From a virus (lineage: Duplodnaviria > Caudoviricetes), in the IMG/VR virus record IMGVR_UViG_3300035497_000313, positions 38,437 to 102,436 of that record: a stretch of DNA of 64,000 nucleotides; one strand, 5' to 3'. The notes beneath the pieces were generated by a model. It was not told where the DNA came from. It saw only the letters and a program-made list of their open reading frames with translations, and ran no database searches. Below are positions 7,769-37,686 of the stretch, one piece after another; position 1 is the stretch's first letter, and every line of letters starts with the position of its first letter. Both the position numbers and the translations under genes were made by a program.

Positions 7769-9724
7769 TTAACTAAATGAAGAAATAATTACTGTAGCTG
7801 TACACTTAACATTAGAATAAATACGTCTAAAATTGCCACTATCACTTTTAACTTGTCTACTTACAAAAGCTACAGTAGGCATATATGGGTCACTTAACGA
7901 TGTAGTTAAACCCACATTACTTTCAACGTGTACACTAGAAACTCTAGCTCCACTAACAGAACAGTCTACGTAATATTTTCCAAGTTGGGTATCAGCAGAA
8001 TCAGTTGATGTTGACCAACTACTCGATGTAAATGTATATTTTTCTATATAAGGTCCTAAATCATCCCATTCCCAATTTCCATCGCTACTCAAACTTGTTG
8101 TATATGTTAATATAATTAATTTACCAGTAGTAGGGACATTCGATGTTGTTAAGTTGTCAGCATAATTTCTTATTATAGTTTTGGCACCTATGCCATTTAT
8201 ACTAAGCGTTGTAGAACTAGTTCCAGCACTACTAACTGGTTTAAATACAATAGTTAAACCCTCATAATATTCTGTTATACTAGCATCCGTGCCCATCCAG
8301 TTAATAGTCGTTGAGTCCCCTGTTGTTATGATAACAGAAGATGCTACATAATGGATAGTATTTTTATTAGCCCGTATATCCCTATCAATAGCTATAAGTT
8401 GATATTGAGTACCGTCATATATAAAAGTAGCAATATCGCCAGCATTTATAATTCCCGCTGTAATCGCACTACCTCTATAATAAATACTTTTTGCGCTTTT
8501 GCTATTAATACTTAAAGTTGCACCAGCAGGAACACTATACGTAAATTTAACGGATACAACACCACCAGTAGATAATACATAACTAGATAAAGCTACTGCC
8601 TTAGCAGTAGTTGTAGCTGCTGTTGAACAAGTACCATAGCCCTGACCTAATGAAGCATTTGTATATGTAGTATTACTATCATAGTAATAGTCTGCCCACA
8701 CCCAATAACCTGTATTCGAAATTGTTGTATATGTCAATAGAACTACTGTATTTACAGGAAGCTGAGTTGTTAAATTACTAGTATTTCTTCTTACAGTTTT
8801 AGCACCCAAACTATTTATATTAAGTGTTGTACTGGATGAACCACCAGTAATGCCTATTTTAAACGCTACAACTAAGCCATCATAATATTCTGTTATACTA
8901 GTATCTGTGCCAGTCCACGTTCCATTCGTACCAGTTGTATTGCCTTGTATATAATGAATTGTATTTTTATCTGCTCTCTCACCTTGTGATGCTGTTGCAT
9001 ATGCTGTAGAATCAGTATATGCGGCACTACCCAAACCTTTAACTGTCACTTCTGTGCCATCTACTTTAATAGTACCGTTTGTAGAACCAGTAGTAACAGA
9101 CTTAACGGCACTATTTGCCGTAGATTGAGCTGTACTAACATCTGTCTTTAACTGTGTAATATCGTCTGCATTTTGCTTTCCTTTATTACCAGCATAAGCT
9201 GTAGAAGAGGTTTCACCGAGTGCCAGTGAAGGACTGATTTCTACATACGCTGTACCACTCCATCTGTATGTGAGATTGGTAGTAGTATCAACATAAATCT
9301 TACCTGTTTCACCAGTAGTAGGAAAATTTGACTTTGCTGTATACTCAAGAACATCATCAACGTATGAAGGAAGTTGCGAACTAGGAACTAAACCACTTGA
9401 ATCAAGTGTTGCGACACCATTGGCTACACCCATTTCACTACGTTTAACCTGTGCATCGTTAGTGACATTACCTAAACCAACCTCACTTGCGGTATATGCG
9501 GGTTTCGTTGATGCCTTAGCCCAATCGTAAACATCGCTTGCTTTTGCCGAGCCTGCTGTTGTAGCATATTTGACAGACTTATTACTGTCTGCCGTGTTGT
9601 CAACATTATCTAGTCCCAAATCTTCTTTAGTGGGTTTATTACTGGAAGAATATACTTTATTATTATTTGTATATATATCTCCATCTATATAGGCATCGCC
9701 ATTTGTTCTAAAAGTTTTTGCCAT
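7769..9724 (-). CDS. tail fibre protein
   Basis: VGLGNV, GVATLD..GLVPSSQLPSYVDDV and FPTTGETGKIYV motifs; Thr/Ser-rich; internally duplicated module. Confidence 0.8.
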   Translation of the reverse strand: MAKTFRTNGDAYIDGDIYTNNNKVYSSSNKPTKEDLGLDNVDNTADSNKSVKYATTAGSAKASDVYDWAKASTKPAYTASEVGLGNVTNDAQVKRSEMGVANGVATLDSSGLVPSSQLPSYVDDVLEYTAKSNFPTTGETGKIYVDTTTNLTYRWSGTAYVEISPSLALGETSSTAYAGNKGKQNADDITQLKTDVSTAQSTANSAVKSVTTGSTNGTIKVDGTEVTVKGLGSAAYTDSTAYATASQGERADKNTIHYIQGNTTGTNGTWTGTDTSITEYYDGLVVAFKIGITGGSSSTTLNINSLGAKTVRRNTSNLTTQLPVNTVVLLTYTTISNTGYWVWADYYYDSNTTYTNASLGQGYGTCSTAATTTAKAVALSSYVLSTGGVVSVKFTYSVPAGATLSINSKSAKSIYYRGSAITAGIINAGDIATFIYDGTQYQLIAIDRDIRANKNTIHYVASSVIITTGDSTTINWMGTDASITEYYEGLTIVFKPVSSAGTSSTTLSINGIGAKTIIRNYADNLTTSNVPTTGKLIILTYTTSLSSDGNWEWDDLGPYIEKYTFTSSSWSTSTDSADTQLGKYYVDCSVSGARVSSVHVESNVGLTTSLSDPYMPTVAFVSRQVKSDSGNFRRIYSNVKCTATVIISSFS

Positions 9725-26513: not shown

Positions 26514-29500
26514 TTATTTTCTTTCCTTCCTTATCAAACCTTGTAAAATTTATTGGTATGTGCTTGTCTACTGAAATATCCATAATTGTAGTTAATGCAT
26601 ACCAGAAGCCAATGTTCATACCAGAATCATAATCATAGCAACCTGTACTATCTAGATGTGATGCTTGTTCTTTAGCAATACAGTCATAAATTTCTTGTAG
26701 TTCTTCACTTGTCATTGTTATCTACCCTACCTACAATTTGCATTTCAACAGAATGTGAATCCTTGTTATATGTATATTTTATTTTTAAACCATTTTTAAT
26801 TTTATATCCGTCTGCTCTAAAATCCATAACAGACATAAATTCTTTGTATAATTCTATATCATAACTACTATGGGTTACATCACAATTACGAAGATAATTA
26901 CGATATGATTGATATGTTTCTCTTAATTCCTCGTCTGTAACACCAACTGTTTTATAACGATTTATTAAATCCTTTAATTTTATTTCAATATCTTCCATAT
27001 TTTAATTCTACTCCATTTTCAAAAGCAACATCTACAACTACTAATAATGCTTTAGTAAGTCCGACCTGTACACCCTCATCATAATCAGTGTCTTTAGTCA
27101 TATTTATTCTCGAAGAATTTTTTATTTCTAAAATTTTATCATAAATTAGTTGAAAGTCATTACTTGTCATTATAAATACTCCTGTTTTAAATACCTTTCT
27201 AAAAAATCTATTACTATACTAAAACCAATTCCTTCACCGAGATAATACTGTGCTTCTTTTTCTAACGAATGTTTTGCTAACTCACTATCAAGATTTAAGG
27301 AATAAAACTGTTCAACTATTTCTTTATTTAGTGCAAAACAATCTTTTTTCAAATCATTTAAAAATTGTTTCAGTTCTTGTATAGAAAACTTTGTATTACC
27401 AGTATTATATAAAGCATCGTCAATCTTAATTTTTAATTCACGTTCTTTATCTGCTACGTTCAAAAACATTACTCCTTAATTAAAAATTGTTTAAATAAAT
27501 CCCTTGCACAAGCTGAACAACTATCTCCTGTTACATTTATTACGGAACAAACGTGACCATCTAAATCACGAATAACAAGTGATTCGTAATAAATAAATGT
27601 GTCTCTGTAATCTTTTTCATAAATACAAGAGCCATAACCAAATTGTTGTACAAGAGGTTCTAAAATGTCTTTTGTAAATTTTGCTATACCTTGTTTTGTA
27701 TTTGGATATTTCATTTTAAAGTTCTACTCCTGTTCTTATTCTTAATTCTATTTTTTCTTTCCAAGAAAGTCTATTTCTTAATTCGTCTTTTATTATTTCT
27801 AATTGTTCTATTTCGTCTAAGGCATCGGTATAATTACAATCTAATTGTTCTATACAACAATACTCACAATCTAACTCGTCTCTTATTGAATCTATTTCGT
27901 CAACGATTTCTTTTAAACTTTCTAAGAAATTATCTTTTCTTAATTTCTCTGTTAGCTTATTTGTATTTGGTTGCTTAAACTGCTCAATTAATTTATCTGC
28001 TTTATTTACATAATTTTCTAAACGGTTTATAGCACTACCTAGTACGTCTATATCATATTCATACTTTTCCACTTAATTGCCTCCGTTTAAGTAATGTACT
28101 TTTTGTTCTGCTTCTTCAATAGTATCATATACATATAGTGCATAAAATCCATAAGGTCTTTGATTATAATTAACCCAGCCAACTTCGTATTTTCCTGTAG
28201 ATATATAACCATCATAGTCGCTATCCAATTTTTGTTGTTTTCTAAATATCCACATTATTATTTACCTTAATCCTCTTCTTCAGTATCTTCTTCATCTTCG
28301 TCTAAATCATCAATTTCAACTTCGTCAAAGAAATCGCCCCAACCGTCATCTATTTCTTCATAGGCTAAGTCCTTTGCTTCCTGTTCATCATCTGCTTCGA
28401 CCGATACTGCCCAAGTTCTTGTTATTGTAACTAAATATTCGTGTTTCATTATTTACTCCTTGTATCTAAATATTAATCTTTATCATCATTTATGATTTGG
28501 TCAACTTCTTCGTTATTATTTATATAATCAATAAGGGACTTTTTATCTAAAAACCATTCCTTATTAAAGTCTTTATAATAATGCTTTCTTTCTTCACCAT
28601 CACAAGATTCATCGTTATCGTATATATAATCTTTTCCAACATACAAAATATTTGTGATATGAAAATACGCTTCATCCATAAATACATCGTAGACATAGAT
28701 TTTCAATTTAAAAATACCGTCATTAATTAACATATTTTTTGCGTTATTTAATTTAGTAAATAATTCGTCTGTATTCATTTTTATTTACTCCTTACAATAT
28801 TATTATATGCCAAAACTTTGTCTTTTTGATTTTAATTTTTACCTATTGGTAAATCTTCTACAATTCTGGGGTAATAATATCTTTTAGAATCTCTTTCTTT
28901 TATTCTTACAGCTCCTATTAATTGTGGTAATATTTTTAATGCACCTTGGCTTTTGTCTATCCAATCTTTTACAGGAGTTATTACAGCTAACATATCTTTT
29001 GCTTCCCTTCTTCTTTTTCTACAGTTAGTTAATTTTGTTGCTGTTTTTCCTCTTTCTTTATACTCACCTAACTCCAACTGATGTAGATAGTCTTGTGTTT
29101 CTTTATCACAATCATTTACTACTTTAGAATAATAAGTATAGTCTTTATTTATTGTTCTTATAAAATCATTAAAGTCTTTTATATATTCTGATGTTTGTTT
29201 ACTCATTTTAATTTACCTATTTACCCACCATTTAAGAACACTTTCAGAAAGTTCTTGTCCACATTCTAAGTCATATTTAAATATACTTTCTATACAATGT
29301 GGTTGTAATTCTTTTAATTGTTTTTCTATTTCTTCTCTTGCTAACATTTCACCTTTATAAATATATTGCCCATCAGCTCTTTTATATTCATCTACCATAT
29401 AATGTATTTTAAGTTCACTACAAGGAATTTTCTTTATAGCTGTCATAAAACCATTCTTTAATTCTTCTAAGGAAACTTGCTGTAAGAATACATCCGTAAG

Positions 29501-33565: not shown

Positions 33566-34304
33566 TTTTTCCTTAGTTTTTCCTTATTTTTCTATATTTC
33601 TTCTATTATCCATCCATTGTAATAATGCATGTTTAAATCATTACATTTACTACTTGCTTTTTCTTTTATTCCTATCCATATTTTATTATTTTTTGTTACC
33701 TTATTTATGTTTATCTTAATACATTTTTCATTAGATAATTCACAAATAATTTCATCTGTTTTTATGTTTTTTATTACATATTTTTTCTCTGGTGCTATTA
33801 CATTCTTTACTTTCATCTCTTTTTTCTGTTATAGTAAATACTATATATGTCGTTTTTATAGTATTTACTATTTAACTTTTTGTAGTATATACTATAACAA
33901 TTTAATACGAAATAAACTAAAAATTTTTCAACATTTTCTTTTCTAAAATTTAATTTGTATTCACTTGCTACATCTATATTATATGCGATTTGACATTAAT
34001 TATGTTCTATCTTTTCACAATTTTTTAAATATAATTCTACATAAAATAATTTATCGACATAAAAATCTTTTAACTGAATGTGAAGAGCATCTGCCATTTC
34101 TTTATCTTTCTTTAATACGGGACAGATTTTAAACTTAGGACAACTAGACACTAAATAAGACGGAGTACCATTACATACTGTAAACTCTGCTTGCCAACCT
34201 TTTACTGGTATAAATGTTCCGTTAGACCACGAACATTTACCACAGGCATTTGCACAATTCCAACAAATAGATTCTCTCTTAGCCATACTCTTTTCCACCT
34301 TATG

Positions 34305-34378
34305 TTATACTATAAACGTTATACTATAAAATAGTTATTGTATTATACTATAAATTATTTATCATATTATACTATAAA
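34305..34378 (+). repeat. four direct copies of TTATACTATAAA
   Basis: Copies at 34305, 34319, 34343, 34367. Confidence 0.85.
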
Positions 34379-34933
34379 TTATTTATGCATTATATATGAT
34401 TTCAGCGCATTTAATTTTAGTATCAAATATTTCTCTTACATGTTCTTGCCACACAGCTAATGAAAATGTATCAACAGAATCTAACTTCTTTAAAAGCTTT
34501 TTAACGGCTTTTATAATGTCCTCTACGTCAGTGGGAATAACAATAGTTTTTACATTCCCGTCTGTATCTATATCAAGTATTCTTGTTTCTGCCTCTATAT
34601 CATCGGTGAATACTCCGATATAATGGTATCTAATTACTTTCTTCTTTTGTTCAAAACCTCTTAACCAAAAATTTCTGTATTCTGGAACTTGAATAGAATT
34701 TTGTTCAACGTTATCTAATTTACGTTCATATGCGATAATTTCTGACATTATTTATATCTCCTATATGTTGTTTCTATATTTATAGTATAACACAATATAT
34801 TATAAAAGTAAACTGTTTGAATGAACAAATTTTAACTTTTTTATAAAAAATTAGTTGTCAACCAGTACCTTTTAAGTACTTAAATTAACAACTAATTTTT
34901 GTTAAACAAAAAGATATAAAAAATGAAACTAAG

Positions 34934-35007
34934 TGGTCGAAAACGTCAGACTTGCACTGCGACTCAACATCCCAAATGTTGCGTGTTGCTATTACACTAC
35001 GTTCTCG
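34934..35007 (-). tRNA. tRNA-Pro(TGG), atypical T arm
   Basis: Acceptor stem CGAGAAC/GTTTTCG, anticodon loop TTTGGGA, encoded CCA; T loop TGCAAGT with an imperfect stem. Confidence 0.7.
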
Positions 35008-35189
35008 GTTTGTCTGTCTTTCCAGACTGCCAACCACTATTTGTCGAAGGATTTTTCTTTACTTGCTTTTTCTTCACCCTTGAAAAGCTCTAAGAAAACT
35101 AGGTGGAGTTTCGACACCAAAACAGTCTCCCAAAGTGACTGGCATTTAAAACAACAGATAATTTTATTGTGTACACTCTGTTGCAGGGA

Positions 35190-35266
35190 TGGTCGATGTA
35201 GTGGGATTTGAACCCACAGAACTCGGATTTTAAGTCCGATACCTATGCCAATTCGGTTACACATCG
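35190..35266 (-). tRNA. tRNA-Leu(TAA) with short variable loop
   Basis: Cloverleaf, loop CTTAAAA, GGTTCAAATCCC, A73, CCA. Confidence 0.85.
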
Positions 35267-35428
35267 GTTATGTAAGAGACACACCAACTCTTACTCTACT
35301 CTACCTATGAGCTTATAGGACACGCTGTACCATAGCCAAGTAGTTCACTTTCCTATTCATGTGATTTAAATAAATCCCTATTTTGTTTTAGTCGTAACAG
35401 GTAACCTGACTTACTCGCATAAGCGAAT

Positions 35429-35512
35429 TGGTGGACTGAAAGGGTGTCGAACCCTTGTCTTTAGCAACTCCATTTGTTGGGTTAAATGCTAAATCGAACC
35501 GTCTATCAGCCC
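35429..35512 (-). ncRNA. tmRNA-like RNA reduced to the tRNA-like domain
   Basis: GGGCTGA/TCAGTCC acceptor stem with G3.U70, A73, CCA; stemless D loop ending GGTTCGA; GAC linker and canonical T arm; no tag ORF. Confidence 0.7.
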
Positions 35513-35651
35513 GAACTACTTAAATAATCCTTTCCACATACAATCTATACTTAGGTTAATATAGCTATGCCTCTCATATCTGTGTACACAGTCTTCCATC
35601 AAGAAGCGATTATTTAAGCGTTTACTAGTAAATTTGTTGATTAACCAACAA

Positions 35652-35726
35652 TGGCTGAGGTGGCTGGACTTGAACCAACGAATGTCAGAATCAAAATCTG
35701 ATGCCTTGCCACTTGGCTACACCTCA
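35652..35726 (-). tRNA. tRNA-Gln(TTG)
   Basis: Canonical cloverleaf, U1-A72, G73, CCA. Confidence 0.92.
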
Positions 35727-35856
35727 ATGATAAGTAGCTTAACGCACTACTTGAGAGGAGTCATTTCTCCCTATACGGCAGGTTGCAACTCGTAGACTCA
35801 TCTGCGGTATAATTTTTGGAAATTATACAAACCTTAGCAAGAAGCTATCTTGCATT

Positions 35857-35943
35857 TGGCTCCACTTATAGGACTTGAACCTATAACCTAATCTGCTTGG
35901 ATTAATGATACGTATCACGCTCTACCTATTGAGCTAAAGTGGA
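35857..35943 (-). ncRNA. tRNA-like RNA lacking a canonical anticodon loop
   Basis: Perfect acceptor, D and T arms and CCA; central region is two small hairpins with 2-4 and 6 nt loops. Confidence 0.65.
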
Positions 35944-36663
35944 ATAATTATAATGGAGATTCTTTATCTAAATTAATATAATCTTCGTAACTTCTCCAAC
36001 TATTATATCCATAAGGCTTAACAAAAATTCTCATAATATTATAGTAGTATTCAATTAACTCCTCATCTAATGGTTTCTGTGTAGATACATAATTACATAA
36101 ATATGTCATATCTTTTAATAAAGAATGTGAATTTGTTAATATATGATAATCTTTATCTTTATTTTGATATGCTTTAGTACAATAATGTAATAATCTATCT
36201 GTACAATTTGTATAACCATTTGTTGCATCTATCTTGGCAGTCCATTTATTTAACTTTTGAACTATTTCAGATTCACTATCAAATTTTGGAGGAGCATTTT
36301 TAAGTTTTCCATCCCAATAATATAAATATAACATTTTAATCCTCTTCGCCATCAATCATACTAAACAACAAGTCTGTTAATTTTTCACTTGCTTCGTCCG
36401 CATCTGAAATAAGCACACTATCTAAAACTTTAGACCGCATATCAATAGGCAATTTATAAAGTGATTCATTTACACGCACAGCTAAATAAGCTCTACCTTG
36501 ACAATAATAATCATCACAAAATTTTATTATTTTGTCACCTAACTCTATTTCGTTAAAGCTTTCGTTTATCCCAAATTCTTTTCCGCAAAATAAACATTTA
36601 CTCACATTTATGTCCTTCTACATTTATATTATATACCATTACTTCTAAAATTTGAACTAAATT

Positions 36664-37686
36664 TTAATTTATTTCGTGTACAAGTATTCTGATATGTAAT
36701 CTTTGTATATTATACCCACCTGCATAAATACTTTCAACAGAAGCTCTACCTAATTTACCTTCTACATAACCATTTAAAACAGGTCTATTATATGAACCCA
36801 TTTTTGCTTCCACATTCGACCAATCTGTTATATCACCAGTAATATGCTTAACACGTCTTATAAGGTCTAAAATTAGGCTCTTAGAGGCTTCTACGTTAGT
36901 GCTATGTATCTTTTCTTCTGTCGTATCAATTAGGTCTCTATCGGCTCTTGTATAGTGCTTATAGAACTCTTTATAACCTAATTCTCTATATGCTTTAGTA
37001 GCCTGTTCTTTTCTTTTTAAATCATATTCATCCCATCTACTTACTAACTCATTCTGCAATGTTTTTAGTGCTTCTGGAAGTTCGTTTATAGTTTCTTCAT
37101 CTGCTGTTACTGTAACAAGTTGAGAATTATAACCTTCTAAAGACTTTTCAAGTTCCTTAATTTCTTTTTGTAAATGAGTAACGTTATCATTTTCATTAAA
37201 AATTATTAAAATTTAATAAAAATATTTGTTAAAATAAATTTATTTTAACTGGGTTAAACGCAAACCCTCTACTAATTATTTGAAAAATTCAAAATTACTA
37301 AATTCTTTTTATAAAAAATATTTAAATTTTATCGTTTATAATGAAAAATTTGTTTAATTTACATTATTTAAAATTTGCTTAATAAAATTTAATTTTTTTT
37401 AATATTATTTAATGTTTTGACATATTATATCCTGTTTAAGATAACTTATATCCCAAATTAACCAAGCCGCTTCAAGTTTAATATTATAAACTTCTTTAGA
37501 ATCCGAATCAACAGTAAAACCCATTTTATTTAATTGACTTGTTTTCTTTTCAATTAAAAGGGTTTTCTTTTCTATTGTGGATTGTTTCTTTTCAATTTTA
37601 GCTTTTGCACTATTAATTCTATCTTGTAAAGTTTCTAATTTCATTTTGACAACCTCTGTATCTTTATTACAGTTATAGTATAACAC
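36664..37686 (-). pseudogene. coiled-coil phage protein gene interrupted by the IS derivative
   Basis: ORF 37686 stops inside the element; reading frame resumes (THLQKEIKELEK...) into 37059-36664. Confidence 0.7.
37181..37429 (-). mobile_element. non-autonomous TnpB-associated IS derivative, copy 2
   Basis: Highly similar to 14561-14799; inserted inside a gene. Confidence 0.7.

Follow-up and report, generated by a model that had tools for sequence, protein, structure and literature searches.

The window, i.e., the whole 64-kb stretch of DNA analysed here, is part of a 102,436-bp virus contig in IMG/VR. The contig derives from a gut-type phage, has a GC content of ~29% and is ~55% complete as estimated by CheckV. 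A cluster of five RNA genes lies on its minus strand, and the genes are given below in the order of transcription, under the extent of the entire cluster.

34934..35943, minus strand: cluster of five RNA genes, all in the same orientation (ARAGORN, Rfam tRNA)
35857-35943, minus strand: odd tRNA-like gene, 87 nt (ARAGORN; Rfam tRNA, 48 bits)
35652-35726, minus strand: tRNA-Gln (ARAGORN, Rfam tRNA)
35429..35512, minus strand: whole mini-tmRNA gene including the encoded CCA (RF00023, 27.8 bits end to end; covariance model R1, 54 bits, E-value 8e-13)
35190-35266, minus strand: tRNA-Leu (ARAGORN, Rfam tRNA)
34934-35007, minus strand: tRNA-Pro (ARAGORN, Rfam tRNA)

The third of these genes is the subject of this report. 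It occupies 84 nt of the window (35429-35512, minus strand), with nt 1 of the RNA at 35512 and nt 84 at 35429, versus ~360 nt in a standard tmRNA. We regard it as almost certain that the element is a phage gene for a tmRNA composed of the tRNA-like domain (TLD) only ("standard form, no CDS"). The gene is real; its kind is already known, albeit the present copy is a divergent one. The mini-tmRNA is a natural miniature, in which the acceptor stem, D loop, T arm and helix 2a of tmRNA are kept, and the tag-coding and pseudoknot part of roughly 300 nt is reduced to a 20-nt closure. Its parts, from the 5' end of the RNA onward, are listed below, with the two strands of the acceptor stem placed together.

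35506..35512, minus strand: 5' strand of the acceptor stem (nt 1-7, GGGCUGA), pairing with 35433-35439 (pair probabilities, 0.93-1.0)
35433..35439, minus strand: 3' strand of the acceptor stem (nt 74-80); the equivalent of U70 is nt 78 at 35435 (G3.U70 in 67/67 family members)
35494..35505, minus strand: stemless D-loop region of 12 nt (nt 8-19), ending in GGUUCGA (the tmRNA D-loop consensus GGaUUCGA minus one base)
35487..35493, minus strand: 5' strand of helix 2a (nt 20-26), forming 7 bp with 35460-35466
35467..35486, minus strand: 20-nt closure of helix 2a, comprising an A-rich internal loop (UUAAC) and a 3-bp hairpin (R1 alignment)
35460..35466, minus strand: 3' strand of helix 2a (nt 47-53; R1 alignment, family covariation and pair probabilities)
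35457..35459, minus strand: GAC linker before the T arm (nt 54-56), aligning to GGAC in the tmRNA consensus
35440..35456, minus strand: T arm (nt 57-73) with a 5-bp stem (AAGGG/CCCUU) and a 7-nt loop (UUCGACA) (RF00023 and R1)
35429..35432, minus strand: discriminator A73 (nt 81, 35432) and the encoded CCA (nt 82-84, 35429-35431), read from the sequence

The acceptor stem comprises 7 bp formed by nt 1-7 and nt 74-80, including G3.U. An earlier note on this DNA had listed G3.U70, A73 and CCA in an alanine-acceptor tRNA-like domain, and all three are found as described once the minus strand is read. The rest of the architecture put forward in that note is present as well, namely a stemless D loop ending in GGUUCGA, a 7-bp helix, a closure of about 20 nt (exactly 20 nt), GAC and a T arm. 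CCA is also encoded in at least three of the four neighbouring genes (tRNA-Gln, tRNA-Leu and the odd tRNA-like gene). Helix 2a is closed by a structured element and not by a plain loop; its inner hairpin is built of 3 bp (CCA/UGG, 35478-35480 with 35470-35472) with pair probabilities of 0.83-0.95. The fold z-score of the mini-tmRNA was -3.0. By thermodynamic folding alone, the T arm received a pair probability of only ~0.3, and low values of this kind are common for T arms. The minimum free energy (MFE) fold contains no T arm, and the structure supported by covariation is 4.4 kcal/mol less stable than that fold; we set the MFE fold aside in favour of the comparative evidence. No complement for a D stem was found in the mini-tmRNA sequence.

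The best match to the element within the tRNA clan of Rfam was the tmRNA model RF00023. The alignment extends over model positions 1-374 with only the two ends filled (local E-value, 8.5e-9; permissive thresholds), and the positions for the resume codon, the tag frame, the stop codon and the four pseudoknots (PK1-PK4) are all deleted. Of the two programs suggested in the earlier note, Infernal thus aligned the tmRNA model end to end, albeit with a score below the gathering cut-off (27.8 vs 47 bits), and ARAGORN called neither a tRNA nor a tmRNA at 35429-35512. A further covariance model, R1, was built from 24 similar phage RNAs (alignment A2) with the structure written by hand and the window copy left out. 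R1 matched the window copy over the full length (model 1-79) at 54 bits with an E-value of 8e-13 over 64 kb, and this was the only significant match in the 64-kb window and in the whole contig.

The flanks were also searched for a separate coding piece, and none was detected in the window or in the 102-kb contig by ARAGORN or Rfam. Nor did these programs detect a further tmRNA, whether permuted or in standard form, in either of the two sequences; the contig is ~55% complete. Families of permuted tmRNAs gave no match at E-values up to 10 within 34300-36800, and the order of the parts in the element is standard. Consequently, the claim of a tmRNA tRNA-like domain without an mRNA-like domain holds, as (i) RF00023 is the best match in the clan, with the middle of the model unoccupied, (ii) the element belongs to a covarying family of TLD-only RNAs, and (iii) the contig contains neither a coding piece nor a second tmRNA. 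The spacer at 35110-35159, which shows inverted-repeat similarity to parts of the element, was considered as a permuted second copy or antisense partner and was rejected, since the resemblance was at chance level (blastn-short E-value, 14) and the matching pieces were not collinear. Neither SmpB nor a protein with an RF-1/ArfB domain, a peptidyl-tRNA hydrolase or an integrase was found to be encoded in the 102-kb contig, which is ~55% complete; a phage SmpB or a full tmRNA could reside on the missing part. A flanking 135-aa protein has no relative in IMG/VR.

Similar RNAs were collected from IMG/VR by a loose DNA pattern consisting of the D-loop UUCGA, a gap of 25-55 nt, GAC and a T arm, which matched at least 120 stretches. 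The matches were filtered for a perfect 7-bp acceptor stem, in which G3-C70 was also acceptable. Among the matches listed, 52 distinct molecules passed this filter; they are 73-95 nt in length (76-98 nt with the next three bases) and share the same architecture. All of these 52 members among the matches listed bear A73 and G3.U70, and only 13 encode CCA. U70 and A73 were imposed neither by the search pattern nor by the filter. The pattern itself required UUCGA, GAC and GGG/CCC in the T stem; the invariance of these positions among its matches therefore carries no independent weight. The copy of Mycobacterium phage DS6A (see below), which was found without the pattern, differs at some of the positions demanded.

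Alignment A3 comprises 70 model matches, 67 of which are distinct. In this alignment, 96.4% of the cells were paired, versus 65.6% in shuffles and 37-54% when the partners were slid. Both sides changed in 18 of the 23 pairs and all four helices covary: the changes on both sides extend to 8/8 model pairs of helix 2a and 3/3 pairs of the inner hairpin, and two outer pairs of the T stem covary. G1-C72, G2-C71 and G3.U70 are invariant in 67/67 members. The covariation, together with the excess of pairing, indicates that the structure of the family is real and under selection. The invariant positions show that the signals for alanine charging are under selection as well.

Some members are longer (94-103 nt) and have an extended closure of helix 2a (L151:7858-7960, L153:3487-3580, L068:11908-12002 and L090:11235-11329). 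In locus L127, a pattern match (9227-9283) and a match to the covariance model (9492-9571) lie ~200 nt apart on the same strand, and may represent two tandem tRNA-like or mini-tmRNA genes. Synechococcus phage S-CRM01 was rejected as a member, as the match was weak (21.8 bits) and limited to the 3' half.

The window copy is of the most divergent kind among the members, and is missed by ARAGORN and Rfam at default thresholds. No close relative was found by an exact 19-mer search of IMG/VR or by a blastn search of the 84 nt against 50,697 phage records. A pattern made from its inner loop matched locus L020 only, and a pattern with its T arm had no match in metagenome contigs. Thirteen other members tested with RF00023 scored 51-75 bits, above the cut-off. 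Infernal-based pipelines would therefore label such members "tmRNA" without noting that the RNA is 80 nt long. ARAGORN called none of the family members checked as a mini-tmRNA: the member at L143:4471-4552 was labelled tRNA-Leu(taa), and L090:11236-11879, which contains a 95-nt, GC-rich long mini-tmRNA, was folded into a 644-nt "permuted tmRNA". The annotation of mini-tmRNA genes in public records is likely wrong or missing.

The closest precedent of the element is the RNA of Mycobacterium phage DS6A, which was listed as "Mycobacterium phage DS6A (TLD only)" by Hudson, Lau and Williams (2014, PMC4131195) and corresponds to tmID 11587 of the tmRNA Website with the form "Standard, no CDS" (PMC4131195; PMC11915505). 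Of the sequences in the 2025 tmRNA database, only 9 are of the "Standard, no CDS" form and a total of 79 are from phages (PMC11915505). We located the DS6A element at 28478-28557 of JN698994, in which it is unannotated. R1 matched it over the full length at 54.6 bits; as the window copy matches the same model over the full length with nearly the same score, the two RNAs are members of one family. Both are phage-borne RNAs of ~80 nt without a tag frame, arranged in the standard order, and share a stemless D loop, G3.U70, A73 and a short hairpin that caps helix 2a. Nevertheless, the two copies differ in several respects. The window copy is AT-rich, from a phage of 29% GC, whereas the DS6A copy is 70% GC; the closing pair of helix 2a is U-A in the former and C-G in the latter; the D loop of the window copy is one base shorter and its CCA is encoded; and the window copy resides within a tRNA gene cluster, whereas the DS6A copy stands alone between protein genes.

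The element shares the tRNA-like domain, helix 2a, the A-rich internal loop that follows it and the alanine identity with standard tmRNA (SsrA, RF00023), whereas the resume codon, tag frame, stop codon and PK1-PK4 are found in standard tmRNA only. The TLD-only forms of some mitochondria, which the earlier note had cited as precedent, fit in part. The CDS-less tmRNAs in the mitochondria of jakobids and oomycetes (RF02544) are classified as "Permuted, no CDS", and the plastid CDS-less forms of Mallomonadaceae are roughly 65 bp (PMC11915505). These organellar RNAs resemble the element in the tRNA-like domain, the lack of a tag frame and the presumed dependence on SmpB. The mitochondrial genes are circularly permuted and two-piece, however, unlike the one-piece phage gene described here. 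Engineered TLD constructs are of essentially the same design as the element, in that the two ends of tmRNA are joined by a short loop; they bind SmpB, have served for crystal structures of the SmpB-TLD complex, and are active on the ribosome in vitro when SmpB is present. For instance, the construct in PDB 2CZJ consists of 25 nt of the 5' end and 34 nt of the 3' end joined by a UUCG loop (PMC3929946). In contrast to such constructs, the element is a natural, conserved gene, and its closure is longer and structured, with a covarying 3-bp hairpin.

A narrower, strict pattern, which requires the U-A closing pair seen in the window copy, was searched to completion. It matched 42 stretches in IMG/VR, 26 of which are true members as assessed by R1, and 99 stretches in 596 Gb of species-representative bacterial and archaeal genomes, only one of which is a true member. 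This sole member from the prokaryotic set (L247:1819-1900, 63 bits) probably derives from a prophage or from a phage contig that was binned wrongly. The contrast between 26/42 in IMG/VR and 1/99 in prokaryotes indicates that the family is large and almost confined to phages. Extrapolating from the 10 of the 42 viral strict-pattern stretches that are among the loose-pattern matches listed, we roughly estimate that some 500 stretches in IMG/VR match the general pattern and that ~60% of them are true.

The members occur in two recurring settings. In large phages, the mini-tmRNA gene lies within tRNA arrays, as in L149, where it is placed between two tRNA-Lys genes; a tRNA gene was found within 500 nt in 18 of the 70 members, on the same strand in 17. 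In small, HK97-like contigs, the mini-tmRNA gene stands by itself in the head-gene operon, on the coding strand (e.g., L056, L070, L097, L126 and L129). Of the loci in the latter setting, 8 have a prohead protease gene just upstream, 10 have the major capsid gene at a distance of 15-299 nt downstream, and 11 have a portal gene nearby. We found no protein neighbour common to the two settings. tmRNA databases treat the DS6A RNA as a curiosity (PMC11915505), and the window now contributes a second, divergent RNA of this type, carried by an AT-rich phage of the gut type. The RNAs in question make up a large family with a covarying structure, almost confined to phages. In the literature searched, only mentions of DS6A were found and no description of a phage mini-tmRNA family; the kind is known, and the size and the genomic settings of the family appear to be undescribed in searchable papers. 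The mini-tmRNA of the window is moderately interesting alone, and more so as part of this large and little-described phage family.

With moderate confidence, we propose that the mini-tmRNA is an alanine-charged competitor, which uses the SmpB of the host and replaces host tmRNA at stalled ribosomes without adding a tag. The RNA would be transcribed together with the flanking tRNA genes, trimmed by the tRNA-processing enzymes of the host, and charged by the host alanyl-tRNA synthetase (AlaRS) via G3.U70 and A73. As AlaRS, EF-Tu and SmpB all bind to the TLD (PMC3929946), the mini-tmRNA is expected to be bound by host SmpB and EF-Tu. Since no SmpB, RF-1/ArfB-type factor or peptidyl-tRNA hydrolase was found in the contig, it must work with host factors. 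It would then compete with host tmRNA on two levels, for binding to SmpB and for entry into the vacant A site of ribosomes that have stalled on broken mRNAs. Because the mini-tmRNA bears neither a resume codon nor a tag frame, it would suppress ssrA tagging during infection, together with the downstream proteolysis and decay of mRNA.

This proposal is consistent with the behaviour reported for similar molecules. According to Mao et al. (2009), as cited in PMC4131195, a similar TLD-only molecule strongly inhibits tmRNA irrespective of whether it can be charged with alanine, perhaps by titrating SmpB. The same study, as cited in PMC11915505, is the source for inhibition of endogenous tmRNA by a DS6A-type form in E. 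coli. The alanine identity set is strictly conserved in the family, which suggests that charging matters. Taken together with the inhibition in E. coli without charging, this conservation implies that the mini-tmRNA probably acts on the ribosome and does not only soak up SmpB. If such action at the level of the ribosome is genuine, phages commonly tamper with bacterial ribosome rescue by means of an 80-nt RNA, and the family would provide a natural minimal system for testing what the tRNA-like domain does without a message. The two functions offered in the earlier note, an SmpB decoy and tag-free rescue, are both compatible with the sequence evidence; for the ribosome, the outcome may be release or a dead end.

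The main rival to competition with host tmRNA is productive rescue without tagging, which we consider possible but unlikely. If this is the case, the alanine-charged mini-tmRNA gains access to stalled ribosomes with the help of host SmpB and EF-Tu, and the nascent chain is transferred to it without a tag being added. Ribosomes would be quickly recycled from fragments of host or phage mRNAs, and the chain would be released by drop-off and peptidyl-tRNA hydrolase or by an ArfB-type factor; in a variant of this scenario, a short tail of alanines would be built up in repeated rounds. The complete set of alanine identity elements and the invariant A73 fit such a role, as they are needless for a mere SmpB sponge. 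A TLD fragment with SmpB makes polyalanine in vitro without a template (Shimizu and Ueda 2006, as cited in PMC3929946), and TLD-only RNAs can thus be accommodated, accept a peptide and translocate. The CDS-less tmRNAs persisting in mitochondria with imported SmpB also suggest a tag-free use (PMC11915505). Nevertheless, the mini-tmRNA offers no stop codon at which the event could end, the contig carries neither an RF-1/ArfB-type factor nor a peptidyl-tRNA hydrolase, and the only in vivo data on such a molecule cited in PMC4131195 and PMC11915505 point to inhibition of tmRNA and not to rescue. A working minimal rescue RNA, which enters ribosomes stalled on the mRNA fragments that arise during infection and frees the ribosome untagged or adds a template-free alanine tail by repeated rounds, is a rather doubtful account of the mini-tmRNA. 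If it is nonetheless true, the mini-tmRNA would amount to an RNA-only rewiring of bacterial ribosome quality control, encoded by hundreds of phages.

A function outside ribosome rescue is improbable. Here, for example, the mini-tmRNA would serve as bait for a tRNA- or tmRNA-cutting nuclease of host defence, or would engage RNase R together with SmpB. In the AcrIIIA1 system, Cas10-Csm and RNase R are bound by phage-derived tRNA and tmRNA fragments of ~90 nt that correspond to the TLD part (PMC11662646), and a second odd tRNA-like gene (35857-35943) is present in the same cluster. On the other hand, the mini-tmRNA is not accompanied across the family by a nuclease, an Acr-like gene or a conserved protein partner, the neighbours vary by phage type, and the conserved positions are those recognised by AlaRS, EF-Tu and SmpB.

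Least credible of all, and already contradicted by the covariation and the model scores, is the idea that the element is an ordinary, degenerate or intron-bearing tRNA, an attP remnant of host ssrA or a chance resemblance: although it lies in a tRNA cluster, one family member is mislabelled tRNA-Leu by ARAGORN and temperate phages often carry 3' pieces of ssrA (PMC10865867), the ordinary tRNA fold that the earlier note had weighed against its own reading is not seen (no D stem, no anticodon arm, ARAGORN silent, RF00023 the best clan match), the D loop and the 5' acceptor strand have both been retained, with covariation linking them to the 3' strand, which would not be expected of a remnant, the attP reading is unsupported because the contig has no integrase, and E-values of 1e-9 to 1e-12 speak against chance.

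The odd tRNA-like gene at 35857-35943 deserves a separate description. ARAGORN called it tRNA-Asp with an impossible anticodon, 'atc'. Its acceptor, D and T arms and CCA are intact, and 25 nt stand in place of the 13-nt anticodon stem-loop. It may represent a further tRNA mimic or a tRNA gene with an intron. The five RNA genes are separated by spacers of 130-180 nt (35008-35189, 35267-35428, 35513-35651 and 35727-35856), and genes in other phage tRNA arrays (e.g., L149 and L143) are spaced by 2-15 nt. The spacers of the cluster may hold promoters, processing sites or further small RNAs, and a palindromic motif, TGTGTACAC, occurs twice in them, at 35168-35185 and 35581-35598.
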